DNA from: Candidatus Buchananbacteria bacterium
GTDB lineage: Bacteria > Patescibacteriota > Patescibacteriia > Buchananbacterales > UBA6539
Assembly: GCA_013359225.1 (NCBI GenBank)
Contig: JABWCG010000001.1
Span: forward strand, 206,362-270,361
DNA length: 64,000 nt
Reading direction: 5' to 3'
The translations under genes and the position numbers were made by a program. Positions 11,089 to 50,752 of the stretch are shown piece by piece. Every line of letters begins with the position of its first letter. The first letter of the stretch is position 1. The notes beneath the pieces are model-generated. The model saw only the letters and a list, made by a program, of their open reading frames with translations, did no database searches and was not told where the DNA came from.

Positions 11089-11117
11089 TTGACAAATTTG
11101 AGCAATTAGGTTAAAAT
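11089..11117 (+). promoter_or_regulatory. Consensus sigma70 promoter driving the GC-rich lipoprotein gene.
   Basis: TTGACA at 11089-11094, a 17-nt spacer, then TAAAAT at 11112-11117. An approximately 240-nt GC-rich leader follows. Confidence 0.55.
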
Positions 11118-11355
11118 GTGGGACTGGCTCACCATGGGTCCAGTTTGTGTTTGCACCTTATAATTTGGGTTATTGATAACAACGAAAAACGACACCAAAG
11201 GAGTGTCACAACAAGAGGAGATGTGCCTATAAGGAGAGCAGGGAAGCTTTGGCAGGACAAGTGCGTAAGGAACATTTCTTGAGCCGCGCGGCTTGAGAGA
11301 TGAGTGTCGAACAACGTGAAACCGAAACGGAAACGAATGAAGAGGAGTGAAACGA

Positions 11356-14300
11356 ATGAACACGATGGTTCGCAACATGATGGTGTGCGTCATGGCGGCG
11401 CTGGTGGTGCTGTTGACCTCCGGCTGCCCGATGACGCCCGATCCGCCCAACCAGCCGACGCAACCGACGTTCGACGTTCGGACCCGGCTGATTGAAGGCA
11501 AAGCCGAAGTAGTGGTCCGCAACACGGACACGCGACAGGTCAGCATTCAGATTCTGGTCCAGGATGACCGTACCGGCGACTACTTTCCCGCGTACGACGA
11601 AACCGGCGACCAGCTCCTGCGCAGCATCATGCAGCCGGGAGTCCAAACCACCGTAACTGGACAGCTTGTTAACCGCACGTATGAAGGTCACCCCGTGATC
11701 GACATCGGCGGCGGCGGAGTTCACAGTTACTGGTGGTGGGATCCGTATGCGCCGCTGTATCTCTACCCGGTTCCGCCCAGCATAAGCGTGGACTGGGAGA
11801 CATACGTGACTGACGAGGAGATCACCATCACCGAAACGACGTTTGTTGACGGTGAAGGGGCGTACTTGGGCGCACAATTCGTGTTGCCCGAAGCCGGACG
11901 CTACATGGTTCGGGTCACTGGTTTTAACGAGCAGAACGTTGAGTTCAAGCCGTTTGAAACCGTGTTGCCTGACTACGATGGAACAACGCCGGACCCGGAT
12001 CCCGAAGACACCGCCGACCTGGAAGTCCTGTACTTCAGCAATTACGGAGACGTCAACGGGTACGTCTATGGCATCGTCCATGGCGTGAATCCGTCGACCC
12101 ACTCCGTCGCGTGCTACATCAACGTCGACTCAATGTGGTGGCCCAAGCCGGATTTCGGCAACGGCGCCTTGACCCCGTTGGAAAATGGCGGTTACTTTGA
12201 GACCGACATTACCACGGGCGGCGACGATCAGCGCGCAACGTTGATCTACTTGGCTGTGGTGCCAAACGGTACGCAAGTGCCGCAGGCGCCCAGCCTTGAC
12301 CAGCCCTACATTCCGGAAGCGCTCACCAGCAAGCTATTGGTGCGTAATCCCGGACCGGTTGAAGGCGGACCTGGCGTGATTGATTTCACTGAAGTGCCCT
12401 ACTACAAGGATCCTGACGGGGTGCTTCGCGGTACGGTTTCAGGAGTCAATTTCGCTGACTATCAAGTCGCTGTCTACATCCTTGTCGAGGGAGTCTGGTG
12501 GCAAAAGCCGGACTGCACCCTCGTCGACATCATGAGCAATGGTTCCTGGTCGGCTGACGTGACCGTGGTGCCAAGCGACGCGAACGCAACGCAGTTCGCC
12601 GCGTTTCTCGTCCCGCGGGGTACTTCAGTACCCTGCACGGTGTATCCGACCAAGAGCAAATCCTTGGTGGCTGGTATTGATATCCCGGGCGCGGTTGATT
12701 ACGTCATCGTGAACCGGGTACCGCATATCGGCCTGACCAAAATTCCGGCCTACGAAGACACGGTCGGTGACCTGCGCGGTATCGTGGAAGCGCTCGACCC
12801 GACGCAGTACGATATCCATACCTTTATCCGGGTTCCCGGTGAAGGCTGGATTGCGAAGCCGGGCTTTGCGCCTGACGACGCGACGGTTGTTGCCGCTGAC
12901 GGTACGTGGTCGTGTGACATCGTTACCGGATTGCCGGGGCAGACCAACGATCATCGGGCAACTGAGATCTGGGTTTTGCTGTTTGGCAAGGGTGTTGAAG
13001 TAACGCCGTGCGGAGACGCTGTTTGTAGCGACCTGAATATCGACACGGTGGTGAACAACGCCAGTGCTGGGATCTGGGTGAATCGTCGTCCGGGAGCGGA
13101 AGATGAAGAACCTATTATCACCATCATCGGCGCAAACCCGGTCACTTTGGCAGTTGGCAGCGGGCCGTATACCGATTTGGGCGCTACGGCGTTTGATACG
13201 GAAGACGGCGACCTGTCGGCAGAAATCGTTACCACCAATGACGTCAACACGTCGGCGGTGGGAACGTATCACGTGAATTACAGCGTGACGGACAGTGCGA
13301 GCCACACGGTGAACGCTTCCCGAACGGTTCACGTGGTGGATACCGTCGGTCCGGTAATTACCGTTTTGGGCGCAAACCCGCTGCACGTGCAGCAGGGAAG
13401 CGGCCCGTATGTTGATCCAGGCGCCACGGCGTTTGACAACTACAACGGTGACATCACCGGCAGCATTGTGAAGACCGGTTCGGTCGACACGAACACTCCC
13501 GGTACCTACACCATTAACTACAGCGTGCAAGACAGCTCCGGCAACTCTGCCAGCGCTTCGCGCACGGTAGTGGTGGATGAGGTGGTCGAGGATCAACCCC
13601 CGGTCATTACGATCTTGGGGTCAAATCCTCATACCGTCCAAGTCTTGAGCGGCCCGTATCCGGAATCCGGTGCGACCGCCCTTGACCCGGAAGATGGGGA
13701 CATCTCGAACCTGATCGGAACCGTGTCCACGGTGGACATGACGACGATCGGTACGTACAACGTGACCTATTCGGTCACAGACAGCGGCGGCCACCCGGTC
13801 CAAGCGGTGAAAGTCGTTTACGTTGTCGACACGGTGGCGCCGGTTGTTGATCCGATTCCGGACCAGTTCCGTTTGGCGCTGGCATCGGGCGACCTTGATC
13901 TCGGTAACTATGGCTACGACGCGTACGACGAGAACGCGACGTGGTCCATCGTACCCGGATACGACACCAACCTGATTTCGGTGAGCTTGTCGGGAACGAT
14001 CCTGACGATCACCGGGAAAAACGTCGGTGGTACAACCGTACTCACCGTGAAACTGACCGATGGCAGTGGAAATTTCACCACGGCCGACATCAACGTCACG
14101 GTTAGCCCCTGCCAAACGGCATTTATCCAGATTACCGCCGAACCCGGCAGTATTGATGGATTTCCGAATGCGGTGGCCGGCGAAGTGTGCGGCGTCGATC
14201 CGTCAACGCATAAAGTAGTTCTGTACGTTCGCGTGCACGATGCGGTGAGCGGTAACGATTACGCTTGGGTAAAGCCGAACTTCGGGGCCGAGAAATACAC

Positions 14301-14505
14301 GGCCATCAATCCGGACGGCACCTGGGAGTCGTCGGTCGCTCCTGACGCCAATACCTGGAAAGAGGTGCGGGCGTACTTGGTTGAAGATGGTACTTCGATG
14401 CCCGACGCTGGGTCAAGTGGTCCAATGCTGTGGAGCGATTTCCTTGGGTTAAACCTGGAAAACACTTCCGGTGTGCTCGGCCTCGCCTTTGTCACCAACG
14501 GGTGA
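11356..14505 (+). CDS. Large surface lipoprotein with tandem DUF5011-like Ig-fold repeats. The gene is compositionally foreign (GC-rich).
   Basis: The start is ATG 11356, with a GAGGAG RBS 8 nt upstream. The ORF track's GTG at 11347 is too close to the RBS to be the start. The signal peptide has a lipobox 'LLTSGC'. Three tandem ~80-aa repeats of the form 'PVITxxGANPxxxxxGSGPYxDxGATAxDxxDGDxxxxIVxTxxVDTxxxGTYxxNYSVxDSxGN...RTVxVVD' are present. Upstream there are four or more repeats of a ~100-aa module with a conserved 'WW.KPD' motif. Sampled lines are 58-70% GC. Confidence 0.8.
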   Translation: MNTMVRNMMVCVMAALVVLLTSGCPMTPDPPNQPTQPTFDVRTRLIEGKAEVVVRNTDTRQVSIQILVQDDRTGDYFPAYDETGDQLLRSIMQPGVQTTVTGQLVNRTYEGHPVIDIGGGGVHSYWWWDPYAPLYLYPVPPSISVDWETYVTDEEITITETTFVDGEGAYLGAQFVLPEAGRYMVRVTGFNEQNVEFKPFETVLPDYDGTTPDPDPEDTADLEVLYFSNYGDVNGYVYGIVHGVNPSTHSVACYINVDSMWWPKPDFGNGALTPLENGGYFETDITTGGDDQRATLIYLAVVPNGTQVPQAPSLDQPYIPEALTSKLLVRNPGPVEGGPGVIDFTEVPYYKDPDGVLRGTVSGVNFADYQVAVYILVEGVWWQKPDCTLVDIMSNGSWSADVTVVPSDANATQFAAFLVPRGTSVPCTVYPTKSKSLVAGIDIPGAVDYVIVNRVPHIGLTKIPAYEDTVGDLRGIVEALDPTQYDIHTFIRVPGEGWIAKPGFAPDDATVVAADGTWSCDIVTGLPGQTNDHRATEIWVLLFGKGVEVTPCGDAVCSDLNIDTVVNNASAGIWVNRRPGAEDEEPIITIIGANPVTLAVGSGPYTDLGATAFDTEDGDLSAEIVTTNDVNTSAVGTYHVNYSVTDSASHTVNASRTVHVVDTVGPVITVLGANPLHVQQGSGPYVDPGATAFDNYNGDITGSIVKTGSVDTNTPGTYTINYSVQDSSGNSASASRTVVVDEVVEDQPPVITILGSNPHTVQVLSGPYPESGATALDPEDGDISNLIGTVSTVDMTTIGTYNVTYSVTDSGGHPVQAVKVVYVVDTVAPVVDPIPDQFRLALASGDLDLGNYGYDAYDENATWSIVPGYDTNLISVSLSGTILTITGKNVGGTTVLTVKLTDGSGNFTTADINVTVSPCQTAFIQITAEPGSIDGFPNAVAGEVCGVDPSTHKVVLYVRVHDAVSGNDYAWVKPNFGAEKYTAINPDGTWESSVAPDANTWKEVRAYLVEDGTSMPDAGSSGPMLWSDFLGLNLENTSGVLGLAFVTNG

Positions 14506-14550
14506 CAATCAATAACCAAACCAACACTCGACTTTAGGGGAGAGTGACAA

Positions 14551-14601
14551 CGCCCTCGCAAGTACTGTTCAACAAGAACGGGAAAGCGAGGGCTCTTTTT
14601 T
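14551..14601 (+). terminator. Rho-independent terminator of the GC-rich lipoprotein gene.
   Basis: The stem GCCCTCGC (14551-14558) pairs with GCGAGGGC (14585-14592). A T-tract TCTTTTTTT follows. Confidence 0.55.
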
Positions 14602-14647
14602 TAAGTTAATTTTTTAAATCATCTACAACTATTTAAGTCTTTGGGGT

Positions 14648-14741
14648 GTGGGGCGGTATTAAGCCCTAGAACAAATAGTCAAAGTTAGATTGGCGTTAAA
14701 GGCGCATTACCGTCCCACGCTTTTTGGATACTTTTTCTAAA
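14648..14741 (+). other. Structured element of unknown role: a long-range stem plus T-run, followed by a perfect 10-bp palindrome.
   Basis: GTGGGGCGG (14648-14656) pairs with CCGTCCCAC (14710-14718), including one G-U pair. 'GCTTTTTGG' follows. Then comes GATACTTTTT-cta-AAAAAGTATC at 14716-14741. Confidence 0.35.
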
Positions 14742-14833
14742 AAAGTATCGTAAAAAATAGCATAGCTCTAGTTATTTAATCTCGCAGTATTGACAAAAAC
14801 TCTAAAATATGATTTAATTTAAGTGGTAATTAA

Positions 14834-16747
14834 ATGTCTAAAAACATGAAGAAATTACTAAAAAAAATTAAGGATTTATCTATTAACCGTCACCAAATTG
14901 ACACGGATCGTGACGGTCTTTCTGATTATGATGAAATCAATATCTATCATACCAATCCATATAATCCGGATACGGATAAAGACGGGATTCCGGACGGTGA
15001 AGAAATTCGTCGCGGCCGCAATCCGCTCGGACCCGGTACGTTGAAAGATTTATTTATTCCTTATGCTGGTAACAATTATCAGCCGCATATTTTATTGCCG
15101 CGTCGGGTGTTGTTTTATGCTGTTGCTGCCACGGTTACTAAAGTGATTATTGCCGGGTTAGTTGTGTTGTTTCCGGCCGGCGCTTGGTTAACGCCCGATT
15201 TGATGATTCAAGAAAGTAAGCGGGTGATTGAGTTAACTAACCAAATCAGACAGCGCCAATCAGTCCCGGCTTTAAAGGAAAGTTCGTTATTAACCCAGGC
15301 GGCGTTTGATAAATCTCAGGATATGCTTATCCAACAGTATTTCGCTCACGTCGGTCCTGATGGCTTGGATTTAAGCGATTGGATTAAGGGAACCGGGTAT
15401 CGTTATTTGGTGGCTGGTGAAAATTTAGCGATGGGGTTTGCCAGCGCTGATGAAGTTGTTACTGCTTGGACAAAAAGCCGGACTCACTACGCCAATTTGA
15501 TTGACACAGACTATGAGGAAATTGGTGTTGGAATGGCTTCTGGTATGTATAGCGGTGTTGATACGACGATGGTTGCTCAGTATTTTGCTTTAGCTTCCGG
15601 TCCGGCGGTTGCCGTTGAAGAGCCGAAATCCCAAGTTGTTGAGGCAGTGGTTCCAACCCCGAGCCCAGAACCGGTTGTGGCAGCAGTAAATCAGCCGCAG
15701 GAAGTTTTACCGGAAAAAGTTGAAGAACCGGCTCCTGTACCAACCCCAGCTCCAACTCCTGAACCCACGCCAGTGGTGACTAAACCAACCCCGGCTCCTG
15801 CACCGACACCAGTGGTAGTTGAAAAACCTAAACCAATCCCAGCTCCAACTCCAGTAGTAACCAAGCCAGTACCAACCGCCATTCCAACTCCGAGCCCAGA
15901 ACCGGTTGTTACACCTGAGCCACAGGTAGTTGTTAAGCCGGTTTTAGCTAATCCTAAATTTGTTATGTATCCGACGCAGGACGTCTCCGAACAAAATCAG
16001 GTTCTCGTTGTGGCGTATGCGCCAACAGCTGAACGCTTGATGATTTTAGATAACGGCAATAAGATTGCGGAAAAAACAAGTTTACAGAGTGAATTTTTTG
16101 ACTTTGCGTTGCAACTTGAGCCTGGATCTCATACATTAGTCGCTAAGTCCTTTAAAGGTGATTTAGAGGCAGTTTCGCAAACACTGACGTTAACGGTTAA
16201 CGACAGCGTTCCGGGCGCTGATTTGGAAAACAGCGAGATGGTGATTTCTCAACCTTCAAGTGGTAACGATAAAATTATAATGGCACGAATGTACTTGAGC
16301 ACCGACGCCAAAGAAGCCCAGATTACTTTTGATAATTATCGTATTGAATTGACGAAGGAAGACGAAATTAAAGATGGCTTTAATCTTTGGACTGGAGAGT
16401 TGATTGTATTCGGATCAGACGGCAAAGATATATTTAATACAGTGACGTTGCCGGTGTTATCAATCACTGATGTAAGCGGCAACGAATCAGTGCAGGATAT
16501 TAGTTGGGAGCATATCGTACCGTCAAGCCCCTCACTGACCAGACAATATTTATTTATGAAGTCCTACCCCTTGAAACAAGTTGATTTATTGTTTGATATT
16601 TCCGGTTGGTATTACCGCATCATTCTAGTAATTGCCGTTGTTGCCCTATTGTTGAATATCTTTATTGAAATTAAGAAACAGTATCCTCATGTTATTGCCT
16701 CGACTCTTGGATTGATCTCATTGATGGTAATCTTTATCGTAGTGTAA
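14834..16747 (+). CDS. Membrane-anchored surface protein with calcium-binding DxDxDG repeats, a CAP/SCP (PR-1-like) domain, a Pro/Thr/Ala-rich linker and a C-terminal transmembrane segment.
   Basis: The N-terminus has 'DTDRDGLSDYDE' and 'DTDKDGIPDGEE'. The CAP-like block is 'AWTKSRTHYANLIDTDYEEIGVGMASG'. A long 'PTPAPTPEPTP' linker follows. The C-terminus is hydrophobic. Confidence 0.7.
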   Translation: MSKNMKKLLKKIKDLSINRHQIDTDRDGLSDYDEINIYHTNPYNPDTDKDGIPDGEEIRRGRNPLGPGTLKDLFIPYAGNNYQPHILLPRRVLFYAVAATVTKVIIAGLVVLFPAGAWLTPDLMIQESKRVIELTNQIRQRQSVPALKESSLLTQAAFDKSQDMLIQQYFAHVGPDGLDLSDWIKGTGYRYLVAGENLAMGFASADEVVTAWTKSRTHYANLIDTDYEEIGVGMASGMYSGVDTTMVAQYFALASGPAVAVEEPKSQVVEAVVPTPSPEPVVAAVNQPQEVLPEKVEEPAPVPTPAPTPEPTPVVTKPTPAPAPTPVVVEKPKPIPAPTPVVTKPVPTAIPTPSPEPVVTPEPQVVVKPVLANPKFVMYPTQDVSEQNQVLVVAYAPTAERLMILDNGNKIAEKTSLQSEFFDFALQLEPGSHTLVAKSFKGDLEAVSQTLTLTVNDSVPGADLENSEMVISQPSSGNDKIIMARMYLSTDAKEAQITFDNYRIELTKEDEIKDGFNLWTGELIVFGSDGKDIFNTVTLPVLSITDVSGNESVQDISWEHIVPSSPSLTRQYLFMKSYPLKQVDLLFDISGWYYRIILVIAVVALLLNIFIEIKKQYPHVIASTLGLISLMVIFIVV

Positions 16748-16854
16748 AACCTAGCCGAGCAAGGAGGGGGAGACATACGGTGTTTATACAATATTAATTT
16801 ATCTAAAACAAAAATCCCCACTGCTGACCTTGGCAAGGGGTTTTTGTGTAGGTA

Positions 16855-16883
16855 TTGACATTTTTTTAATTTATATGTATAAT
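16855..16883 (+). promoter_or_regulatory. Consensus sigma70 promoter of the glycosyltransferase cluster.
   Basis: TTGACA at 16855-16860, a 17-nt spacer, then TATAAT at 16878-16883. Confidence 0.55.
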
Positions 16884-16940
16884 AATTGGTTAAAAATAAG
16901 TTATATTTAATGACTAAATATTGCTTAAATAAGCATAAAT

Positions 16941-17897
16941 ATGGCTAAACTAATTTCTGTCATTATTCCGGTTAATAACGAAGAGGCTAACATCCCTTTG
17001 ATTTATCAGGCGGTAAAAGACCAGCTGATCAAATTGGGTAGTGATTTTGATTATGAAATAATTTTTGTGGATGATGGCAGTACTGATAAAAGCAATTTTG
17101 CAGTTACCCGACTATGCGATGCTGATCCAAAAGTTAAATTAATTGAATTTTCCCGTAACTTCGGTAAAGAGGTTGCGACCACTGCTGGGTTGCATGAAGC
17201 ATCCGGAGATGCAGCAATTATTATTGATGCTGATCTGCAACATCCGGCGTCGTTAATTCCGGATTTCGTAGCTCGCTGGACTCAGGGATTTGATATGGTT
17301 GTTGGCGTTCGAAATAATAATGAATCAGAAAGTGTCATTAAACGTTTAGGTTCGGTGGCCTTTTACAAGGCAATGAAGCTGATTGGCGAAACCAAATTGG
17401 CAAGCCGGACCACCGATTACCGAATTATTGATCGTAAGGTGATTGATGAATTCAAACGTTTTACTGAGCATAACCGAATTACCCGGGGTTTACTTGATTG
17501 GCTTGGCTTTAAGAAAGAGTATATTTACTTTACGGCCCTCACTCGCCAACACGGTAAGCCGTCATATTCAAAAATCAAATTAGTAAAATTGGCACTTTCA
17601 ACATTTGTCTCACATAGTTTATTCCCGTTAAAATTTGCGGGCTATCTTGGTATTATTATTGTTTCATTTTCTGGGCCGCTTGGTTTATTTATTTTTATTG
17701 ATAAATATATTTTGGATGACGCGACCGGCTTTAATTTTTCCGGCCCGGCCATTTTGGCGCTAATTAATATGTTTTTTACCGGTATTATTTTAAGTTCGCT
17801 TGGTTTAATCGCTTTGTATATCGCCGACATTCAAAGCGAAGTGACAAACCGGCCGATGTATGTAGTGCGGTCTCGTAAAAATTTGAAACAGCAATAA
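16941..17897 (+). CDS. Family 2 glycosyltransferase of the polyprenyl-phosphate sugar transferase type, with a C-terminal membrane anchor.
   Basis: The N-terminus 'LISVIIPVNNEEANI...IIFVDDGSTDKS' is a GT2 signature, including a DAD motif. Two C-terminal transmembrane helices are present. Confidence 0.8.
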   Translation: MAKLISVIIPVNNEEANIPLIYQAVKDQLIKLGSDFDYEIIFVDDGSTDKSNFAVTRLCDADPKVKLIEFSRNFGKEVATTAGLHEASGDAAIIIDADLQHPASLIPDFVARWTQGFDMVVGVRNNNESESVIKRLGSVAFYKAMKLIGETKLASRTTDYRIIDRKVIDEFKRFTEHNRITRGLLDWLGFKKEYIYFTALTRQHGKPSYSKIKLVKLALSTFVSHSLFPLKFAGYLGIIIVSFSGPLGLFIFIDKYILDDATGFNFSGPAILALINMFFTGIILSSLGLIALYIADIQSEVTNRPMYVVRSRKNLKQQ

Positions 17898-17901
17898 ACC
17901 T

Positions 17902-35874: not shown

Positions 35875-35990
35875 ATTAATCTAGTATAGCAAAAAAATAT
35901 TCATCCGGCGATTTTGGACGTGAAACGACCCCGAAGTCTTAAGCAGACATCCGGGGTCGTGGGGGTTGAGACGCTAGGGAGTCTTACTCT

Positions 35991-36344
35991 CTAGCACTCG
36001 TGGGGAGCCGGCAAGAACTTGCCGTGTCTCCACTGTTGGCACCAGGCGATGATAATCGTCGGCGCCGCAAACGCGAAGTGAAGGAACGTAAGGGCAACGA
36101 GGTTGCCCAGGTTGTGGCTGTTACCCGCGAGCCAACCGCGGCGGTGGGTGATGGCACCAGCGATGATGCCCCAGCCAACCTGCGAAACGAGGATGATGAG
36201 CATACCCAGGCCCATCATTTCCGGGGCGAAGATTTCCTTCCCCCAGAACTGCTCGCTCGTGAGCCCGACGCCGACGGCGACGAATGCCGTGAGGTAGGCG
36301 AGCATGAACACGTCGAACAGCGCTGCCGCGATAAGCTTTCTCAT
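35991..36344 (-). CDS. GC-rich (foreign-composition) small membrane protein of 117 aa.
   Basis: An AGGAG RBS lies about 8 nt upstream of the ATG at 36342-36344. Three to four hydrophobic helices are predicted. The sampled line 36121-36180 is about 68% GC. Confidence 0.6.
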   Translation of the reverse strand: MRKLIAAALFDVFMLAYLTAFVAVGVGLTSEQFWGKEIFAPEMMGLGMLIILVSQVGWGIIAGAITHRRGWLAGNSHNLGNLVALTFLHFAFAAPTIIIAWCQQWRHGKFLPAPHEC

Positions 36345-36443
36345 CTGATTTTGCTCCTGATTTCGCCGGATTGCTCAAACTTGAGATTTCCCAAGTTGGA
36401 AGGACCACCCTTCCAATAATCCAGCATTTTCAAAGATAAATAT

Positions 36444-36472
36444 ATTATAACATATAATATAAAAAATGTCAA
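36444..36472 (-). promoter_or_regulatory. Perfect consensus sigma70 promoter on the minus strand, embedded in a 12-bp inverted repeat, driving the GC-rich membrane-protein gene.
   Basis: The minus strand reads TTGACA (36467-36472), a 17-nt spacer, then TATAAT (36444-36449). The surrounding sequence is AAAAAATGTCAA-N6-TTGACATTTTTT. Confidence 0.55.
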
Positions 36473-36502
36473 TACATTTTGACATTTTTTCGCTTATTTT
36501 AT

Positions 36503-42447: not shown

Positions 42448-44241
42448 TTACGGTTCAATGCTTGATTGAATTATTAAATCAATAGATTGCAAAAATGTCG
42501 CCGGCAAAATTTTTTTACTCGCTAACATATCATAAAGTCGCTCCAATATAAAAGTCTTTTTTATATCACTTCTTTTTACAAACCCTTTCATTTTTTCCAC
42601 TTTTGTTATTCTGTCAAGAAGTTTAAAATTGTTTAAATCTTGTTTATTTTTCTGATCAAGATTGAAAAATTTTACTCCTTCCTGCAAAAACCATTTTATT
42701 ATTTCATCAACATTTTCCTGAGAAACTAGGGCTTGTTCGATAGAATCTTTAAATATTAAAAAACCGTTGGTCTTGAAATGTTTTTTGGAATATTTGAATA
42801 TTTTTGATGAATCACCTTGAGACTTAAAATTTTTTTTATAGTATTTAATAAATTTATTAAACCCCACCTTGTTTAACTGTTTCATTTGTATTAACTGATT
42901 TTCCAGGGATTCACAAGAATCTTTCCGTGACATAACATCTCCATCAAAACTGATAATGAGTGGGATGTTAAATTGGCTTATGACTTTGTAATAATCAAAA
43001 ATCCTTGAGTAGCCACCATAGGGAATGATAACCGTAGAAAAGTGTTTTCTCCCTCTCAGGGTTTTTTTAATAATTCTATAGTCCGTAAGCCCCTCAACTA
43101 AAATTGCCTTATCTGAAAAAAACAACTCTGACCCAACTACGTCAGTTTTATCATAAATATCGTACAATAGGCGTGATGTAACAGATATTTGAGTGCTTTT
43201 ACAATCACTTCCTTCTTTCCACATCTTTACTACATTCTTATAGTCTTCAGGTCCAAGCTCGTTCACCACTACCGATGAATGTGTGCTGATTATTGATTGG
43301 GTTTCGTCATTTTTAATGTAGTTAAAAATTGCGCGTTGAGCACCGGGGTGCAAAAATATTTCCGGCTCCTCAATCCCCAATATAACAATTGGCTTAGTGC
43401 CAAGCTGATTGGCAACAAATTTGATCAGCGTTATTAAAATAATACTTTGTAGTCCGGTTCCTTGATATTTAAAATTAGTTTTTATATCATCTTTGTTTAT
43501 AAGATGAAGATTAATGGTTTGGCCCATGAGTTCAATAAAATGCTCTTGGTTAAAAATAAATTCAACTTTTTCATTGTTATCAAAATTAAATTCATGCAAG
43601 ACAGACCCTATTAAATCTTCTGAGTCTTTAAATTTTTTATGAAGTATTGACCAAAAATTATTGTATGCTTTGATATATTTCCGAGCTCCTTGAAGGCTTA
43701 GTTTCAAAAATTCTAAAAGAATGGTTTTTTCAATTTCAGTATCTTTAAGTCTTATTGCTGATATCTTTGCAAATTTAACGTTATTTCTAACGGCCTCAAA
43801 TAATTCATTGGCTTTTGACTTTTCCCCGACAAAGGACGTCAGCTTTCCGCGTTTAGATGTTATGCAAATTTTTCTTTTTTGAATTTCATTAAAATTTCTA
43901 GGATATTCAATCTCAACATCCAATACCAAATTGTCGTGCCCTCGTACTTTCCGAAAATGATAGCCTAATTTTCTAGTGAGTAATTTTTTTGTTTTATCTT
44001 TTTCGAATCTGAGCTTAATCTTAGTGGAAGCCCTGTAGCCACGCCCGCCTTTCTGTAACTGTTGAGGATAATCTAAATCAGAATCGTATGGCGCATCATT
44101 AAAAAATAGATCAAGTGCATTTAGTACGGTAGATTTGCCAGAATTATTTGGCCCTACGAGAAGAAGAAAATCTCCTATATTGAAAGCAGCTGAACCGCAT
44201 ATACTTCTATAATTTTTTATCTCTATGGAAATAAGTCTCAT
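42448..44241 (-). CDS. OLD-family nuclease: an N-terminal ABC-type ATPase plus a C-terminal Toprim domain.
   Basis: Walker A is 'LLLVGPNNSGKST'. The signature-like motif is 'YQGTGLQS'. Walker B / D-loop is 'IVILGIEEPEIFLHP'. The H-loop is 'ISTHS'. The Toprim is 'AILVEGLTDYRII...ISFDGD'. The locus is very AT-rich compared with its neighbours. Confidence 0.8.
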   Translation of the reverse strand: MRLISIEIKNYRSICGSAAFNIGDFLLLVGPNNSGKSTVLNALDLFFNDAPYDSDLDYPQQLQKGGRGYRASTKIKLRFEKDKTKKLLTRKLGYHFRKVRGHDNLVLDVEIEYPRNFNEIQKRKICITSKRGKLTSFVGEKSKANELFEAVRNNVKFAKISAIRLKDTEIEKTILLEFLKLSLQGARKYIKAYNNFWSILHKKFKDSEDLIGSVLHEFNFDNNEKVEFIFNQEHFIELMGQTINLHLINKDDIKTNFKYQGTGLQSIILITLIKFVANQLGTKPIVILGIEEPEIFLHPGAQRAIFNYIKNDETQSIISTHSSVVVNELGPEDYKNVVKMWKEGSDCKSTQISVTSRLLYDIYDKTDVVGSELFFSDKAILVEGLTDYRIIKKTLRGRKHFSTVIIPYGGYSRIFDYYKVISQFNIPLIISFDGDVMSRKDSCESLENQLIQMKQLNKVGFNKFIKYYKKNFKSQGDSSKIFKYSKKHFKTNGFLIFKDSIEQALVSQENVDEIIKWFLQEGVKFFNLDQKNKQDLNNFKLLDRITKVEKMKGFVKRSDIKKTFILERLYDMLASKKILPATFLQSIDLIIQSSIEP

Positions 44242-44340: not shown

Positions 44341-44415
44341 TGGTAGCGCCACGGGGAATCGAACCCCGGTTACATGGATGAGAACCATGCGTCCTAGCCG
44401 CTAGACGATGGCGCC
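44341..44415 (-). tRNA. tRNA-Glu(CUC).
   Basis: The reverse complement folds as a cloverleaf with anticodon loop TTCTCAT, T-loop GGTTCGATTCC and an encoded CCA. A minus-strand TTGACT-17-TATTAT promoter lies upstream. Confidence 0.85.
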
Positions 44416-44529
44416 ATAAAACGAATTCTATAATAACTAATTTTTGGCTTTTAGTCAATAAGTATCATTGACAATCAATGCTCTTTCGTGTAGAATCTAT
44501 TATTGTTATTAATCAATTTTTTAATCAAA

Positions 44530-45984
44530 ATGGCTCAGGAAGTAATTGTCCGATTTGAAGACGTCACGTTTGAATATGAACACAAAAAGCCTCTGCTTGA
44601 CGAGGCTAGTTTTAGCGTGCGCACCGGATCAAAAATTACCCTGATGGGTCAAAACGGTGCCGGCAAGTCAACAATTTTTAATTTGATCAAGGGCAACCTT
44701 AAACCAAAAAGCGGCAAAGTTTCAATCGCAGGCGGCGCGACAATCGGTTCGGCGTTGCAAGTTGTTGCCAGAGAAGATCTGGATTTAACGGTTGAACAAT
44801 ATTTTGCCAAAGGTTTTGAGATTGTGCCGCCTGGCCTGAAAAGCAATATCAGTAAGGTTTTGGAAGTTGTCAATCTGCAGATTCCAACTGATCGCAAAGT
44901 CGGAGATTTGTCTGGCGGTCAGCAGGCCCGGCTGTTATTGGCATCGGCCTTGATTCAAAACCCAGATATCTTGTTGCTTGATGAGCCGACCAATAATTTG
45001 GACCAGGCGGGGATTGATCACTTGATTCAATTTTTGATTATGTATCCTAAAACCGTGATTGTAATTTCCCACGACGCGGACTTTTTGAACTGTTTTACCG
45101 ATGGTGTTATTTATTTAGACGTTTTTACCAGAAAACTTGAAACCTACGTTGGTGACTACTATTCGGTGGTAGAAGAAATCAAAAACCGAATTGAGCGCGA
45201 ACAAAAGAAAAATGCGCAACTGGAAAAACAAATTCAAGACCGCAAAGACAAGGCTAACTTTTTTTCTCATAAGGGTGGCAAAATGCGAAAACTTGCCAAA
45301 AAGATGCGCGATGAAACTGAAGAAATGGAAGAAGAAAAAGTTGACGTTCGCCGAGACGATAAAACCATTCGCGAATTTGAAATTCCGGCGCAGGATATTT
45401 TTGGCGACCTTGTGACTATTTCTTCAGTCAAAATTATTAAAAATCATGAGCCGGTTACACGGGAAGTAACAAGAGTCTTGGGCAAGCGTTCGCGGTTGTT
45501 GATTTCTGGTCCAAACGGCATTGGTAAAAGTACCTTGTTGCGGTCGTTAATTTCCAATCAGCACGAGGGTGTAAAAATTTTAGACGGCGTGCGCGTTGGC
45601 TACTATAGCCAAGACTTTGCGACGCTGGATTTTAACCAGACGGTATTTGATTGTTTGTGGCAAGCCCGAGGCCGCGACGATATTGATGAACAAAAAATGC
45701 GATCAATTGCCGCCGGGTTTTTGATTACCGGTGAACTGATGCCGCGTAAAATCGGCCAACTGTCTGAAGGCCAAAAAGGCTTATTATCGTTTGCCAAGTT
45801 GGTATTGATGCAACCAGGGCTTTTGGTTTTAGACGAGCCGACCAACCATATCAACTTCCGCCATATTCCGGTGATCGCCAAAGCGATTAATGAATACGAG
45901 GGCGCATTGATTTTGATTTCGCACATGGCCGAATTTGTTAAAGATGTCCATGTTGACGATTATTTGGATTTAGGCAAGCTTTAA
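44530..45984 (+). CDS. ABC-F family ATPase with two ABC domains and no transmembrane region.
   Basis: Two Walker A motifs ('GQNGAGKST' and 'GPNGIGKST') and two signature motifs ('LSGGQQ' and 'LSEGQK') are separated by a charged linker. Confidence 0.85.
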   Translation: MAQEVIVRFEDVTFEYEHKKPLLDEASFSVRTGSKITLMGQNGAGKSTIFNLIKGNLKPKSGKVSIAGGATIGSALQVVAREDLDLTVEQYFAKGFEIVPPGLKSNISKVLEVVNLQIPTDRKVGDLSGGQQARLLLASALIQNPDILLLDEPTNNLDQAGIDHLIQFLIMYPKTVIVISHDADFLNCFTDGVIYLDVFTRKLETYVGDYYSVVEEIKNRIEREQKKNAQLEKQIQDRKDKANFFSHKGGKMRKLAKKMRDETEEMEEEKVDVRRDDKTIREFEIPAQDIFGDLVTISSVKIIKNHEPVTREVTRVLGKRSRLLISGPNGIGKSTLLRSLISNQHEGVKILDGVRVGYYSQDFATLDFNQTVFDCLWQARGRDDIDEQKMRSIAAGFLITGELMPRKIGQLSEGQKGLLSFAKLVLMQPGLLVLDEPTNHINFRHIPVIAKAINEYEGALILISHMAEFVKDVHVDDYLDLGKL

Positions 45985-45999
45985 TGTGATAATGAGGAT

Positions 46000-47031
46000 A
46001 TGTTTGAAACCATCCTCAAAAAATACGATTATCAAATCCCTAAAGATTTGATTGCTCAAAAACCTGTTACGCCACGCGATGCCGCGCGGCTTTTGGTGTA
46101 TGAAAAATTAACCAAAAAGATTGTTGACTCAACTTTTAAAAATTTAGCTGATTTTATTCCCACCAATGCAGTGCTTGTTTTTAATGAAACTAAAGTAATT
46201 CCAGCGCGAGTTGAAACTGTGAAAGCTAACGGCGTAAAGGTTATTGTTTCGTATGTTGAACGCAAGGGAAAATTAATTAAAGTGATGTTGAATAAAAATG
46301 TTAAGGTTGGCGACAAGCTTTTTTTGACTAGGAAAACTTATTTTACTGTTAAAAAAGTTGATGATAAATTTTTCTGGCTCAGTTGTTCGTTTGTGCTGTC
46401 TGGGCTGAATGATATTTTTGAAAAATATGGCCGAGCGCCGTTGCCGCCGTATATTGACGCGTCACCACTGAGCGTCAAACAGGCACGGGCAGAATACCAA
46501 ACGGTTTTTGCCAAAACACCCGGTTCCATTGCGGCGCCGACAGCGTCGCTTCATTTTACTAAATCCCTTCTGCGGAAGTTGAAAGCAAAAGGCGTTACGT
46601 TGCAGTATGTCACATTGCATGTCGGTTTGGGAACTTTTGCCTTGTTAACGGACGAAAATTTCAAGCGAAACAAACTCCACGAGGAGTGGTATTCAATCGA
46701 TCATCAGACTGCTAACATTTTAGCAAAAGCCAAAGCTCAAAATCGGCCGATTATCGCGGTTGGAACCACCGTGGTTCGCACCCTTGAATCAGCTTTTAAT
46801 CAACGTGGTAAAATTACTAAACCTAAGGGTTCTACGGCCCTGTTTATCCGCGAGGGCTACAAATTTAAGGTCGTTAATGCTTTGATTACCAATTTTCATG
46901 TGCCTAAGTCTAGCTTGTTAATGTTGGTCTGTGCCTTTGGTAAAAGATCAGAAATCTTAAAGCTATATCAGCACGCTATTAAGAAACGCTATCGGCTGTT
47001 TTCTTTTGGTGACGGTATGCTGATCAAATAA
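46000..47031 (+). CDS. queA: S-adenosylmethionine:tRNA ribosyltransferase-isomerase.
   Basis: 'YDYQIPKDLIAQKP' and 'PLPPYI' are QueA hallmarks. Confidence 0.9.
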   Translation: MFETILKKYDYQIPKDLIAQKPVTPRDAARLLVYEKLTKKIVDSTFKNLADFIPTNAVLVFNETKVIPARVETVKANGVKVIVSYVERKGKLIKVMLNKNVKVGDKLFLTRKTYFTVKKVDDKFFWLSCSFVLSGLNDIFEKYGRAPLPPYIDASPLSVKQARAEYQTVFAKTPGSIAAPTASLHFTKSLLRKLKAKGVTLQYVTLHVGLGTFALLTDENFKRNKLHEEWYSIDHQTANILAKAKAQNRPIIAVGTTVVRTLESAFNQRGKITKPKGSTALFIREGYKFKVVNALITNFHVPKSSLLMLVCAFGKRSEILKLYQHAIKKRYRLFSFGDGMLIK

Positions 47032-47035
47032 ATTT

Positions 47036-47671
47036 ATGAACGAAATTGAAAAATTAGCCAAAATTATTTGGGATTATCATCACCTGCACCAGCCGTTGGC
47101 AAAAGCCGACGCCATTTTGGCTTTGGGCAGCCATGACATCCGTGTTGCTGAATATGCGGCTGATTTATTTTTGAAAAATTATGCGCCAACTATGATTTTT
47201 AGCGGTGGGTTGGGAAAGTTGACAAAAGATTGGACCAAAACCGAAGCGGAAATTTTTTCTGACGTTGCCATTCAAAAAGGGGTACCAGCTAAAGAGGTGT
47301 TATTGGAAACAAAATCAAGCAACACCGGCGAAAATATTCTATTTACTAAACAGTTGTTGGAAAATAAAAATTTAAAATTTAAAAAAATCATTGTCGTTCA
47401 TAAACCGTATATGGAGCGCCGGACATATGCCACTTTCAAAAAGGTCTGGCCCGACCAAGAAATCATCGTGTCATCACCAGATATTAGCTTTGAAAACTAC
47501 TTAGATCACGCCCGAAGCCGGCAGGAAACTATCAGCGTAATGGTCCGTGATTTGGAAAAAATCAAAACCTATGCCGAACTTGGCTTTCAGATTGAACAAG
47601 AAATTCCCAAAGAGGTTTGGGCGGCGTATGTTGCCCTAGTCGAAAGCGGCTGGATCATCAATCTTGGCTAA
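47036..47671 (+). CDS. DUF218/YdcF-family protein.
   Basis: 'AILALGSHDIRVAEYAADL...SGG' matches the family. Confidence 0.6.
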   Translation: MNEIEKLAKIIWDYHHLHQPLAKADAILALGSHDIRVAEYAADLFLKNYAPTMIFSGGLGKLTKDWTKTEAEIFSDVAIQKGVPAKEVLLETKSSNTGENILFTKQLLENKNLKFKKIIVVHKPYMERRTYATFKKVWPDQEIIVSSPDISFENYLDHARSRQETISVMVRDLEKIKTYAELGFQIEQEIPKEVWAAYVALVESGWIINLG

Positions 47672-47997
47672 AAATGTGCAAATACCTGGTTTTGTGGTAT
47701 AATCAAAATATGAAGCAGGGAGGTTTAAAACAAGATCAGGTTTTCACCAACACCATTGTTCTTGGCGTTGCTATTTTTTTCATGGTTGCCGGTTTTTTCA
47801 CCGCTGATTTCACCTCTGAAGCTTTTTATATTACTGCCATCCTTATTCTCTTTATTTTTTTCCTCAGTAAAGCCAAAACGGAGACTGTTTTAGACAAAAA
47901 AGGCGATATTCCGCTCAGGCTGATGAAGATAACGTTGCTGTTACTAGGCTTGGTTTTCATCGCCGCCGTCGTGTTTTTGGCAATTGTTATCAAATAA
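47617..47997 (+). CDS. Small membrane protein. The 5' end is uncertain.
   Basis: Two to three transmembrane helices are predicted. It overlaps the upstream gene and likely starts at an internal Met. Confidence 0.35.
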   Translation: MGGVCCPSRKRLDHQSWLKMCKYLVLWYNQNMKQGGLKQDQVFTNTIVLGVAIFFMVAGFFTADFTSEAFYITAILILFIFFLSKAKTETVLDKKGDIPLRLMKITLLLLGLVFIAAVVFLAIVIK

Positions 47998-48056
47998 TAT
48001 CAATTGAATAAAAAACTCTTGAATTCATTAATGACCGCACCGATTGGTGTAGGTTT

Positions 48057-49835
48057 TTGCTTCTTTTATTTTTTATGATTAAAACAAACACGAAAAAAAC
48101 TTTTAGATACTATTTTAAAGCCGCCCGAAACCATGTCGCGCTCGGGCTGGTTATGTTTGGTTCAATTATCGCTGCCCGGGTGATTGATCTGATTACGCCG
48201 CTTTATTTGCGGGACTTTTTTAACGTCTTGTCGGGCAGTAGTCCGACTGAGGCCGTGGTTAAAACTCTGATTGATATTTTGATTATTATTTCGGTTTTGA
48301 AGTTTGTGGAATGGCTGATTTGGCGTGTTGCCAATCATGCCGACAGTACCTTTACTTCACGGGTAGCGTTTGATTTAGGTAACATGTGTTTTGCCTATTT
48401 GCATAAGCACTCTTTTGCGTATTTCAATAATAATTTTGTCGGCTCAATGGTGAAGCGCGTCAAGTGGTTTGTCAAAGCTTTTGAAACAATTACCGACCGG
48501 TTCGCCTGGAGCCTATTCCCGCTGTTTGTTGATATTGCAGTGATTTCCGGCGTGTTGTTTTATACCAATTTTTGGCTTGGTTTCGGGGTTTTTGCCTGGA
48601 CGGTGCTTTTTTTGGCCATCAACTGGGCGTTTACTAAATATAAATTGAAATACGACATTGCCCGAAGCGAGGCGGAAACAGTAACAACCAGGGTGTTAGC
48701 CGATACGATTACTAATAGCGCCAACGTGAAACTGTTTAATGGTTACCAGCGCGAGGTCAAGCTTTTCTCGCAGGTGCTTAAGGATTTCACCGATAAACGC
48801 CTCTGGGCGTGGACGCTGGGTAATATTATTGAGGCGGTGCAGGGCTTTTTGATGACCATATTGGAAGTTGGCATTATGTTTTTGGCGGTGTGGTTGTGGC
48901 AGCAGGGCAAGATTACGATTGGCGACTTTATCTTAATCCAGACCTATTTGATTTCAATTTTCATGCGAACCTGGGAGTTTGGCCGGGTAGTGCGAACGAT
49001 CTATGAAAACTTGGCAGACGCCGAAGAAATGACGGTGGTGCTAGAAACGCCGCACGAAATTATAGACGTGCCCGGCGCTAAAAAAATCAAGATTAATCGC
49101 GGTGAAATTAAGTTTCAGAATGTCAGTTTCAATTACCACGAAACCCGAAAATTGCTGGTGAAATTAAACCTTACTGTTGCACCCGGCGAGCGTCTGGCGT
49201 TAGTTGGGCCGTCTGGTGCGGGCAAAACAACTATCACCAAATTATTGTTGCGGATGCATGACTTAACCGGCGGTGTTATCACGATTGATGGCCAGGACAT
49301 TTCCAAGGTTACCCAGGAAAGTTTATGGGCAAATGTTAGTTTGGTGCCGCAAGAACCCGTGTTATTTCATCGGACGTTAATGGAAAATATCCGATATGGC
49401 AAACCAAACGCCACGGATAAAGAAGTTATGGCTTCAGCCAAAGCGGCCAACTGTCATGATTTTATCACCCGGTTTCCGGATGGTTACAATACGTATGTTG
49501 GCGAGCGGGGAGTAAAGCTTTCCGGCGGCGAACGCCAGCGCGTAGCAATCGCCCGGGCGATTTTGCGTAATGCGCCAATTTTAGTCTTAGATGAGGCAAC
49601 TTCAAGTCTGGATTCAGCATCAGAACGCTTGATTCAAGAAGCACTTGATAAGCTGATGAAAGACAAGACGGTCATTGTAATTGCACACCGGCTTTCAACG
49701 ATTCGCAAAATGGATCGCGTGATTGTTATGGACCGTAAAGGTATTGTGGAAGAGGGAACTCACGATGAATTAACCGCCAAAAAAGACGGGCTTTATCAAA
49801 AATTGTGGCAACTTCAGGCCGGGGGGTTTATCTAA
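48057..49835 (+). CDS. ABC exporter with a fused transmembrane domain and ATPase (MsbA-like).
   Basis: A six-helix transmembrane domain is followed by 'GPSGAGKTT', 'LSGGERQR' and 'LVLDEATS'. A terminator at 49863-49910 follows. Confidence 0.85.
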   Translation: MLLLFFMIKTNTKKTFRYYFKAARNHVALGLVMFGSIIAARVIDLITPLYLRDFFNVLSGSSPTEAVVKTLIDILIIISVLKFVEWLIWRVANHADSTFTSRVAFDLGNMCFAYLHKHSFAYFNNNFVGSMVKRVKWFVKAFETITDRFAWSLFPLFVDIAVISGVLFYTNFWLGFGVFAWTVLFLAINWAFTKYKLKYDIARSEAETVTTRVLADTITNSANVKLFNGYQREVKLFSQVLKDFTDKRLWAWTLGNIIEAVQGFLMTILEVGIMFLAVWLWQQGKITIGDFILIQTYLISIFMRTWEFGRVVRTIYENLADAEEMTVVLETPHEIIDVPGAKKIKINRGEIKFQNVSFNYHETRKLLVKLNLTVAPGERLALVGPSGAGKTTITKLLLRMHDLTGGVITIDGQDISKVTQESLWANVSLVPQEPVLFHRTLMENIRYGKPNATDKEVMASAKAANCHDFITRFPDGYNTYVGERGVKLSGGERQRVAIARAILRNAPILVLDEATSSLDSASERLIQEALDKLMKDKTVIVIAHRLSTIRKMDRVIVMDRKGIVEEGTHDELTAKKDGLYQKLWQLQAGGFI

Positions 49836-50063
49836 CTTAAAAATTTTGTTATAATTTAGTTAATGAGAAAACGCCTTCTCAATTGTTTGCGTTTTCTTTT
49901 TATTTTATCTAATTTGAGCCAAATTTTGCTTCACGTGAAACAAAAGATTTTGTGTGATATTTTTAATTAACTATTTTTCTCATAAATCTAGTCTTGAATA
50001 AATTTCTGCCAGTAACTTTTGGTGAAATCTCAAAAAACATCATTTTTTATCTAAATTAAGCTA

Positions 50064-50109
50064 AAATATAGTCATTAAAATTGACTATATTTTATTTTTA
50101 TGGTATAAT
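50064..50109 (+). promoter_or_regulatory. Promoter with a palindromic operator for the GC-rich 156-aa gene.
   Basis: A perfect 11-bp inverted repeat AAATATAGTCA-N7-TGACTATATTT (50064-50092) overlaps the -35 TTGACT (50081-50086). After a 17-nt spacer comes the extended -10 TGgTATAAT (50101-50109). Confidence 0.5.
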
Positions 50110-50212
50110 AATAGTTATGAAGTCTGCAGAAGGGAAAAATCCCTTTTGGCCCTGATATTTCGGGGTAATTTCACAGACTTTACGCTCGTGTTCCAACTTA
50201 TGGAGGCAGGAC

Positions 50213-50683
50213 ATGTTTTTCAGGGTCAATCTGGCAACGTTGGAGGTGGAACGGTTGAATGTTCGTAACCTCTCGGAAGTTCCGGGGGTTAAGAGCAACG
50301 GCCAGCACTACCAGCTCGAAGGTTTCGCCCTCGTTGAGGTGCGAACCCCAAGCTGCGAGATGCTGCTGTTTCATCCGGAAACCCAGTCCAGCAGCGGTCA
50401 CATCGACGTGACCTATCGGCCGCAGCGGCACGACGGTGCCTACGGGGTGGACATGCAGATGTACACTCATGGCTGCGAATTGGACTTCGCCAACGACCAC
50501 TCCTTCCAGTATCACTGGCCGTCGGGTCAGTGGCATCTCTTGATGGCGATCGACGCCATCGAGCAGTTCCTGAAGCAGGAAATCGGCTACACGCCGCACC
50601 TGCGCGAGTACATCGGCCACACCTTCCGGCCCACCCCGCCCAAGCTCGCGAACCTTGAGCCTGGTGAATCGGCCGCCGCCTAA
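50213..50683 (+). CDS. GC-rich (foreign-composition) hypothetical protein of 156 aa.
   Basis: A GGAGG RBS sits 6 nt upstream of the ATG. A strong terminator follows. The sampled line 50401-50460 is about 65% GC. No motif was recognised. Confidence 0.6.
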   Translation: MFFRVNLATLEVERLNVRNLSEVPGVKSNGQHYQLEGFALVEVRTPSCEMLLFHPETQSSSGHIDVTYRPQRHDGAYGVDMQMYTHGCELDFANDHSFQYHWPSGQWHLLMAIDAIEQFLKQEIGYTPHLREYIGHTFRPTPPKLANLEPGESAAA

Positions 50684-50707
50684 TCTAGGCACGGCGGCAA
50701 GCCCCAC

Positions 50708-50752
50708 GAAGCGCTCGTCTCACTCCCAGAGATCGAGCGCTTCTTTCTTTTG
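50708..50752 (+). terminator. Rho-independent terminator.
   Basis: A perfect 10-bp stem GAAGCGCTCG/CGAGCGCTTC has a 16-nt loop and is followed by TTTCTTTT. Confidence 0.85.

Follow-up and report, generated by a model that had tools for sequence, protein, structure and literature searches.

Three GC-rich single-gene units with a common predicted design and conserved composition in Candidatus Buchananbacteria

Architecture of three GC-rich units in an AT-rich genome

The metagenome-assembled genome (MAG) of a Candidatus Buchananbacteria bacterium, which belongs to the candidate phyla radiation (CPR), has a GC content of ~41%, and the 64-kb stretch of it analysed here (the window) contains three dispersed genes of strikingly different composition. 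An initial annotation of the window had guessed at a reduced-genome symbiont, with which the CPR affiliation agrees. A 150-nt scan recovered exactly three long GC islands of ~58% GC against a background of ~0.41, and outside them no stretch longer than 375 nt attains a GC of 0.54. Each island holds one gene, and each gene forms a monocistronic unit; the products are a 1049-aa lipoprotein (locus 1), a 117-aa protein with three hydrophobic segments (locus 2) and a 156-aa protein with no signal peptide (locus 3), which the annotation had called a giant lipoprotein, a small membrane protein and a small soluble protein, respectively. Each of these proteins has an identical entry in the MAG, on a contig of 601,517 bp. 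The genes next to these units encode DnaK/DnaJ, glycosyltransferases, GreA, a cupin and an ABC/HlyD transporter. The features of the three units, including the predicted Shine-Dalgarno (SD) sites, are given below together with their conservation on contigs bearing orthologues of locus 1 (L002, L003), locus 2 (L005) and locus 3 (L001).

11276-14500: GC island 1, GC 0.579
11089..11117, plus strand: predicted locus 1 promoter, TTGACA-17-TAAAAT, exact match; -35 and -10 boxes conserved in L002 and L003
11124..11355, plus strand: predicted locus 1 leader, ~232 nt, 47% GC, beginning with a stem-loop (CUGGCUCACCAUGGGUCCAG); GAGGAG SD 8 nt before the ATG
11356..14505, plus strand: lipoprotein gene, 1049 aa, GC 0.58, GC at third codon positions (GC3) 0.70
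14552..14602, plus strand: predicted locus 1 intrinsic terminator, GCCCUCGC...GCGAGGGC then UCUUUUUUU, z -4.7; nearly identical in L002, loop included
35901-36400: GC island 2, GC 0.582
36461..36490, no strand: perfect 12-nt inverted repeat AAAAAATGTCAA-N6-TTGACATTTTTT, one arm being the -35 box; 11/12 positions kept in L005
36444..36472, minus strand: predicted locus 2 promoter, TTGACA-17-TATAAT and, upstream of the -10 box, TGT, exact match; identical in L005
36345..36437, minus strand: predicted locus 2 leader, ~93 nt, an outer stem around two hairpins and then an AGGAG SD, z -2.8; near-identical in L005 (z -3.0)
35991..36344, minus strand: gene of the 117-aa protein with three hydrophobic segments, GC 0.61, GC3 0.82
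35925..35960, minus strand: locus 2 hairpin resembling a terminator, its U-tract weak, z -3.5; also kept in L005
50201-50775: GC island 3, GC 0.577
50062..50094, no strand: perfect 13-nt inverted repeat TAAAATATAGTCA-N7-TGACTATATTTTA, overlapping the -35 box; conserved in L001
50081..50109, plus strand: predicted locus 3 promoter, TTGACT-17-TATAAT and, upstream of the -10 box, TGG, exact match; conserved in L001
50116..50212, plus strand: predicted locus 3 leader, ~97 nt, a 5'-terminal outer stem around two hairpins and then a GGAGG SD, z -5.0 (L001 z -4.6)
50213..50683, plus strand: gene of the 156-aa protein, soluble, without signal peptide, GC 0.59, GC3 0.80
50708..50751, plus strand: predicted locus 3 intrinsic terminator, GAAGCGCUCG...CGAGCGCUUC then UUUCUUUU, z -3.1; conserved in L001

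The design shared by the three loci, first proposed in the initial annotation, is real and non-random. The pattern TTGACW-N17-TAWAAT has four exact matches in the 64 kb where 0.14 are expected, and three of them are the predicted promoters of the GC-rich units. These match 11-12 of the 12 positions of the sigma-70 hexamers at a spacing of 17, and loci 2 and 3 additionally have the extended -10 form (TG two bases upstream of the -10 box). The fourth match, TTGACA-17-TATAAT at 16855-16883, precedes an ordinary AT-rich glycosyltransferase operon, so that a consensus promoter is not confined to the GC-rich units. The palindromes that had been noticed over two of the three -35 boxes are likewise particular to these loci: among the 83 TTGACW sites of the window, a perfect inverted repeat of at least 7 nt anchored on the hexamer occurs at only two, the promoters of loci 2 (arms of 12 nt) and 3 (arms of 13 nt), with none at locus 1. 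Their half-sites over the -35 box are similar (AAAWAWWGTCAW), with a spacing that differs by 1 nt, and they are candidate operators for a dimeric regulator.

Past the stop codon, each unit has a stable hairpin (z -4.7, -3.5 and -3.1 at loci 1, 2 and 3, respectively). At loci 1 and 3 it is followed by a good U-tract, and the earlier assignment of Rho-independent terminators is sustained there; at locus 2 the hairpin is present and the U-tract is poor (UUUCAC). A motif shared ahead of the terminators of loci 2 and 3 ('CCCCACGA') is at chance level, its count being reached by 14 of 100 shuffles.

For translation signals, we scanned for a 5-nt SD core ahead of any candidate start within the first 30 codons. 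The core is found in all three GC-rich genes (AGGAG, AGGAG and GGAGG) as against 3 of 52 host genes, namely HSP20, ORF (open reading frame) 26481 and a GAF-domain gene, a hypergeometric probability of ~7e-4 by our own arithmetic. In nine host genes a -10-like TAnnWT box lies only 4-10 nt ahead of the start codon, a spacing that suggests that leaderless or SD-independent initiation is widespread in this genome. Other CPR loci are equally SD-poor, those of GC-moderate genomes included, yet the gene family of the 156-aa protein usually bears an SD; for this reason the SD and leader are hardly relics of a GC-rich donor and would instead be a conserved part of how the GC-rich genes are expressed.

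Stable stems start at or near the predicted transcription start (placed from the -10 box) in all three leaders. Those of loci 2 and 3 have a common predicted architecture, in which an outer stem from the 5' end encloses two hairpins and is followed by an accessible SD. In the second hairpin of locus 3, pairing is preserved between the window and L001 through two-sided changes (CCCUGA/UCGGGG vs CCUCGA/UCGAGG). Comparison of the leaders with Rfam covariance models gave no family match (best E 0.5), and in an Rfam scan of the window the gathering score was reached by two tRNAs only.

The composition of the units follows their predicted transcripts. GC is 0.15-0.31 in the promoters, 0.43-0.47 in the leaders and 0.58-0.61 in the coding sequences (CDS; 0.58, 0.61 and 0.59 for the lipoprotein, 117-aa and 156-aa genes, respectively), then 0.50-0.65 in the 3' untranslated regions (UTRs) and 0.21-0.33 downstream; in all three units it rises at the predicted transcript start and falls past the terminator. 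Of the 58-70% GC originally put forward for these genes, the lower part of the range is correct for the CDS, while values of 70-80% apply to third codon positions only. As the annotation had anticipated, GC3 is not uniform over the window: it is 0.70, 0.82 and 0.80 in the three genes, in the same order, with a host median of 0.42 and a standard deviation of 0.07. Every synonymous class (4-fold, NNY and NNR) is an outlier in them, and both G- and C-ending codons are elevated for almost all amino acids. Their third positions are C 0.39, G 0.31, T 0.20 and A 0.10, with no strand asymmetry, and the codon-position pattern agrees with the annotated reading frames. The three genes have a single codon dialect in common: their relative synonymous codon usage correlates at r ~0.76 among themselves and at 0.83-0.90 with the orthologues, the values for the host being -0.06 to 0.29.

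The coding regions also fold ~1.5-2x more stably per nucleotide than host genes (-0.34 to -0.43 kcal/mol vs -0.21 to -0.28), and somewhat more so than synonymous shuffles of themselves (z -0.2 to -3.0). Selection for tRNA-matched codons was rejected as the main cause of the bias: C- and G-ending codons are both up, and the DnaK, L31 and HSP20 genes are without it. Avoidance of endoribonuclease or toxin motifs was discarded too, the only strong and consistent depletion in k-mer counts of the three lipoprotein orthologues against synonymous shuffles being that of CCC/GGG runs. Dual coding was considered and rejected for the antisense ORFs at 36000-36419 (plus strand) and 50198-50707 (minus strand); equally long frames appear in synonymous-codon shuffles (p ~1) and neither ORF is retained in distant homologues, that at 36000-36419 being an artefact of composition.

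GC-richness is maintained in relatives of the units

Orthologues of all three genes were found in settings like those of the window. On L002, an independent Logan contig, the lipoprotein orthologue is 78% identical in amino acids and the flanking proteins mostly 72-92%, with HrcA, GrpE, HSP20, DnaK, DnaJ and a 207-aa ORF upstream and a CAP-domain gene downstream, as in the window. In another Buchananbacteria genome (L003 and L004) the lipoprotein orthologue is 36% identical, and the downstream CAP and glycosyltransferase genes 41-65%. The locus 2 orthologue in L005 (85%) adjoins the same cupin gene, and that of locus 3 in L001 (58%) is followed by the same HlyD-like gene. Along with the genes, the predicted promoters, leaders and terminators have been conserved, and every orthologue shows the GC excess of the window copy, with a GC3 of 0.64-0.81 as against 0.28-0.56 for the neighbours. 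The same junctions, with host-like flanks on both sides, recur in Logan SRR6488469 and SRR13959604, JGI 3300014208 and 3300037810, and GCA_021414225. Since these assemblies are independent, mis-assembly, which the initial annotation had named as a possible refutation, is excluded.

Synonymous sites have turned over during this divergence without loss of the GC excess. At 4-fold sites of the lipoprotein gene, 54% differ between the window and L002, within the range of the flanking genes (54-65%), and 65-68% differ from L003, which is near saturation. GC at these sites (GC4) is 0.70-0.73 in the window and L002 and 0.65 in L003. Of conserved NNY codons, 45% differ between the window and L003 where 48% are expected, that is, the two are statistically independent; the C fraction at NNY is 0.67 in the window and 0.56 in L003, as against 0.14-0.28 in host genes. 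When 4-fold changes on the window and L002 branches were polarised with L003, 22 went from GC to AT and 17 from AT to GC, small numbers to which a saturated outgroup adds noise under parsimony. Because GC sites are ~2x as common as AT sites, the per-site rate is higher towards GC; a high-GC equilibrium predicts such a pattern, and amelioration would predict the opposite. Indeed, with synonymous sites saturated and GC retained, amelioration towards the host composition was not found. The overall synonymous rate at loci 1 and 3 resembles that of their neighbours, and GC-to-GC synonymous changes are frequent; the free turnover of synonymous sites gives no indication that one particular RNA fold is conserved. 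Together, these observations show that in several lineages the units are kept GC-rich and their composition is stationary.

Searches for an outside origin were negative. Close matches come only from Buchananbacteria or metagenome contigs, with the 156-aa family also in Vogelbacteria and other CPR-like contigs, and homologue searches found no donor outside CPR for the three genes. The sole named non-CPR matches are P0006, an Aquimarina protein that aligns with 31% of the lipoprotein at 43% identity, and P0045, which comes from a fungal MAG. Scans of genomes and metagenome contigs for further lipoprotein relatives gave only the already known contig. A repeat scan of the window found no flanking direct repeats, the window has no mobility genes, and neither an integrase nor a tRNA gene adjoins any of the three loci; searches for a phage or defence origin gave no PHROG, PADLOC or phage tblastn match. 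As for integron cassettes, no repeat is common to the cassette ends and Pfam detected no integrase-like domain in 19 neighbouring ORFs, no dedicated attC model having been run; each unit also has its own promoter, unlike the promoterless cassettes of integrons. The three genes thus appear to be old residents rather than recent imports.

The lipoprotein, the 117-aa membrane protein and the 156-aa family

The locus 1 product has a lipobox, LLTSGC, and a predicted signal peptide (MNTMVRNMMVCVMAALVVLLTSGC); G23-C24-P25 is invariant across the three orthologues. An alternative GTG start at 11347 would give 1052 aa. The protein contains three DUF5011/Bact_surface_Ig-like domains (Pfam PF16403, E 3.4e-52, three stretches) and four copies of a ~110-aa module with a conserved V-W-W-x-K-P-D/G-F motif (the WWxKP module), for which there is no Pfam match. 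Copies of the module lie at 12000-13000 and 14150-14400 of the window (residues ~215-545 and ~935-1015), and a DNA repeat, D2, marks two of them. Because of the Ig-like domains, the WWxKP module, and synteny with a secreted CAP/TSP3 protein and with glycosyltransferases, it is probably a surface protein.

Conserved blocks of the locus 1 leader are shared with L002. At the other end of the transcript, the 3' UTR and terminator (window 14520-14602 vs L002 13160-13235) are nearly identical, the 26-nt loop included, as against a 54% difference at 4-fold sites of the gene, which marks this region as a putative conserved 3' element. Leader positions 11165-11177 are complementary at 12 of 13 nt to 14508-14520, the first bases past the stop codon, and could pair with them; with ~7 nt of this kept in L002, pairing between the 5' and 3' UTRs is not established and may be chance.

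The 117-aa protein has L005 as its only relative found. Over the corresponding gene (L005 664-1020), 11% of 4-fold sites differ as against 40% in the adjoining cupin gene; the changes fall equally on first, second and third codon positions and cluster towards the N-terminal half. Such low divergence, from a comparison of two sequences only, could reflect either recent exchange between relatives or constraint at the nucleotide level.

The 156-aa protein belongs to a much wider family. An exhaustive HMMER search gave at least 52 clusters, mostly of 120-180 aa, one of them annotated as Candidatus Vogelbacteria. Conserved residues of the family are N29, Q31, H32, H54, H63, W102, P103 and E117. The family has a structure predicted with confidence (predicted local distance difference test, pLDDT, 93), for which no match was detectable in the PDB. 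We fetched the genomic contexts of six other family members, five of them distinct (L009 and L010 are near-duplicates), and all six look like CPR genomes. Their composition is as follows.

L008 (Vogelbacteria): genome GC 42%; family gene GC 0.59, GC3 0.75; neighbours' GC3 0.27-0.55
L012: genome GC 41%; family gene GC 0.55, GC3 0.73; neighbours' GC3 0.25-0.36
L011: genome GC 38%; family gene GC 0.51, GC3 0.47; neighbours' GC3 0.21-0.47
L009: genome GC 51%; family gene GC 0.55, GC3 0.62; neighbours' GC3 0.54-0.65
L013: genome GC 51%; family gene GC 0.60, GC3 0.69; neighbours' GC3 0.42-0.64

The family gene thus has 51-60% GC across genomes of 38-51% GC. It is monocistronic in every context examined, each time in a different neighbourhood. 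All of them have a predicted promoter close to consensus (often TGn-TAtaAT), a short leader in which a single hairpin is predicted, and a predicted terminator, and all but L011 have a strong SD.

Some single observations on this family may be added. In L008 the gene adjoins a tRNA-Glu(CUC) gene (5789-5863) and a gene for a 569-aa protein (4120-5829) with a faint match to resolvases (serine recombinases), the only hint of mobility seen for the family. P0045 (1527 aa), whose MAG bears the label of the lichen fungus Vezdaea acicularis, has six separate stretches that match the family and is either a repeat protein made of this domain or the product of a contaminant contig. In L011, small genes near the family member (4854-5204, 5334-5834 and 10096-10572) have an elevated GC (0.45-0.46 vs 0.32-0.40), one of them lipoprotein-like and SD-bearing; these hint at more members of the GC-rich class.

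What may hold the composition

To explain the above, we favour, at about even chances, a reading in which all three loci are ancient units of the Buchananbacteria/CPR lineage, inherited vertically and each transcribing a single gene on its own, with selection holding their composition; they would not be recent imports. Each unit would comprise a near-consensus sigma-70 promoter, a leader beginning with a stable stem-loop, a strong SD, a GC-rich body and its own terminator hairpin, and what keeps it GC-rich would be selection acting on base composition at the level of the transcript (or of the unit's DNA), rather than the history of the DNA. The most likely purpose would be an unusually stable mRNA, strongly and independently expressed; the consensus promoter, the 5' stem-loop, the SD in an SD-poor genome and the terminator all agree in suggesting such expression.

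Its working may be likened to that of 5' stem-loop stabilisers and of expression units of the S-layer type. Units for S-layer and other major surface proteins, and ompA, aprE and cryIIIA-type leaders, bring together a very strong promoter and a 5' leader that is long or structured and begins with a stem-loop, along with a strong SD and an efficient terminator, and a stem-loop within a few nucleotides of a mapped 5' end prolongs mRNA half-life. The units described here resemble these in being monocistronic, with a strong predicted promoter, a leader with an initial stem-loop, a strong SD and a terminator, and the largest of them would encode a big surface lipoprotein; however, among the three products, two are small proteins that do not belong to a surface layer, and we know of no such unit with a GC 15-18 points above its genome. 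Structural RNA genes (rRNA and tRNA) do keep a constant GC within AT-rich genomes. This constancy is a theme treated in PMC8827189, and the 156-aa family is comparable in its roughly constant GC (51-60%) while genome GC varies (38-51%); the units differ in being protein-coding, with synonymous sites that turn over freely. Experiments have shown that genic G+C can be under selection that is independent of codon adaptation (Kelkar, Phillips and Ochman 2015, PMC4478552). Here, too, G and C are favoured at synonymous sites for all amino acids and not in tRNA-matched codons; that force, however, was described genome-wide in GC-rich species, whereas here it would be limited to a few units in AT-rich genomes.

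Several points weigh against selection for stable, strongly expressed transcripts. High expression and mRNA stability are read here from sequence signals. Presumably well-expressed host genes are not GC-rich (GC3 0.45 for DnaK, 0.37 for L31 and 0.46 for the SD-bearing HSP20), and for this reason high expression alone is insufficient to account for the composition. As a whole, the leader of locus 1 shows no significant structure (z -1.3), and structure beyond the share due to composition is only modest. The L003 lipoprotein gene is barely above background at 4-fold sites (0.67 vs 0.55-0.65), standing clearly above it at NNY and NNR sites, and loci 2 and 3 have a single close relative each. Finally, the units may go back to a foreign source at the base of the CPR lineages.

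Of the rival explanations, ancient horizontal acquisition would make the units moron-like cassettes from GC-richer, SD-using donors, incompletely ameliorated or repeatedly re-acquired or replaced at the same loci. Morons are independent transcription units in phage or prophage genomes with their own promoter and terminator and a GC unlike that of their neighbours (PMC3594210), a definition that fits the design of these single-gene units with deviating GC. The departure of composition, codon usage, SD use and leader from those of the host is of the kind seen in horizontally acquired islets, which are recognised as GC3 and codon-usage outliers. The varying neighbourhood of the 156-aa family, the tRNA-Glu gene and faint resolvase match beside its Vogelbacteria copy, and the four-fold lower synonymous divergence of locus 2 than of its neighbour, which could be recent exchange between relatives, also speak for it. 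Nevertheless, the units lie outside any prophage, amid housekeeping genes and with no PHROG or other phage match, and they occupy the same loci in relatives with a stationary composition that is no relic of transfer; the patchy distribution in relatives, donor, mobility signatures and amelioration trend of acquired islets are missing, as are flanking repeats or mobility genes in the window. The initial annotation had suggested repeated capture of foreign genes rewired with host signals. This is contradicted by syntenic orthologues that have the same promoters and leaders and the same GC excess, by synonymous sites that are saturated and still GC-rich in each lineage with no net flux from GC to AT (22 vs 17 polarised changes), and by homologues confined, among the contexts examined, to CPR-like genomes; SD use would be atypical also of GC-moderate CPR genomes, the obvious donors. 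Hence, we regard acquisition as unlikely.

Alternatively, a locus-specific bias of mutation or repair could act without selection, through GC-biased gene conversion (gBGC) at recombination hot spots or transcription-coupled repair. Surface-protein genes frequently recombine, and the frequent GC-to-GC synonymous changes, with a neighbour-like synonymous rate at loci 1 and 3, indicate a bias on composition rather than on a specific sequence. Moreover, PMC4478552 discusses gBGC, an acknowledged alternative to selection. Yet in three unrelated genes, and in several lineages, the boundaries match the place where the transcript is predicted to start and that of the terminator, and known conversion tracts are not so delimited; the strand asymmetry typical of transcription-coupled processes is absent and other well-expressed genes are unaffected. 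An excess of 15-18 GC points is, to our knowledge, also far above the reported effects of bacterial gBGC, and altogether we think such a bias improbable. No more probable is that the units are dispersed, co-regulated parts of one system, for instance a surface or attachment module under one repressor, as the annotation had also envisaged. Their common design and codon dialect and the similar palindromic half-sites over the -35 boxes of loci 2 and 3, unique among the 83 TTGACW sites, would fit this, and the palindromes leave shared regulation of these two promoters possible; but the three families never co-occur in the other loci examined, the 156-aa family is widespread in CPR without the other two, and homologue searches returned neither small protein from the distant Buchananbacteria genome that has the lipoprotein. 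In addition, the two palindromes differ by 1 nt in their spacing, and locus 1 has none. An assembly chimera or contamination, with GC-rich reads of another organism joined into a CPR contig, would produce sharp composition steps like those seen; given the recurrence of the junctions in assemblies from other samples, and islands of 0.5-3.2 kb inside a 601-kb contig, its probability is negligible.

Going beyond selection on these three units, we tentatively propose, while holding it rather doubtful, that a small class of genes in CPR bacteria has an expression dialect of its own. Such genes would be monocistronic and GC-rich, with consensus promoters, leaders and a dependence on SD sites, and selection would have preserved the dialect through deep time and in genomes of differing GC. 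If so, it would mark a distinct post-transcriptional regime within genomes that are otherwise AT-rich and poor in SD sites and in which mRNAs are often leaderless, for example one of mRNAs that outlast bulk RNA decay or are translatable in a dormant or attached state, and one conserved member of the class would be the 156-aa family with its His and Glu residues. The loci may in this way point to a special regime of expression in ultra-small symbionts. They also flag an uncharacterised family of small proteins with conserved His and Glu residues, seen so far in CPR-like genomes.

Outliers in GC3 and codon usage are routinely read as horizontal transfer; here they are a conserved property of specific transcription units in several CPR lineages. 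Because the outlier signature is conserved and maintained, outlier-based calls of horizontal transfer in such genomes can be wrong. It is this conservation and maintenance that is unusual, compositional outliers and moron-like autonomous units being already known; our search of the literature on GC-rich genes in CPR or Buchananbacteria found nothing relevant. If the composition is selected on the transcript, the units would offer a natural test case for the long-running question of what selects G+C within genes.

The window also contains an outlier of the opposite kind. The gene at 42448-44241 (minus strand) is AT-rich, with a GC of ~0.32 and a GC3 of 0.29, and encodes an OLD-family nuclease with AAA_15 and TOPRIM domains; it adjoins a tRNA-Glu gene (44341-44415) and may be a small defence islet.

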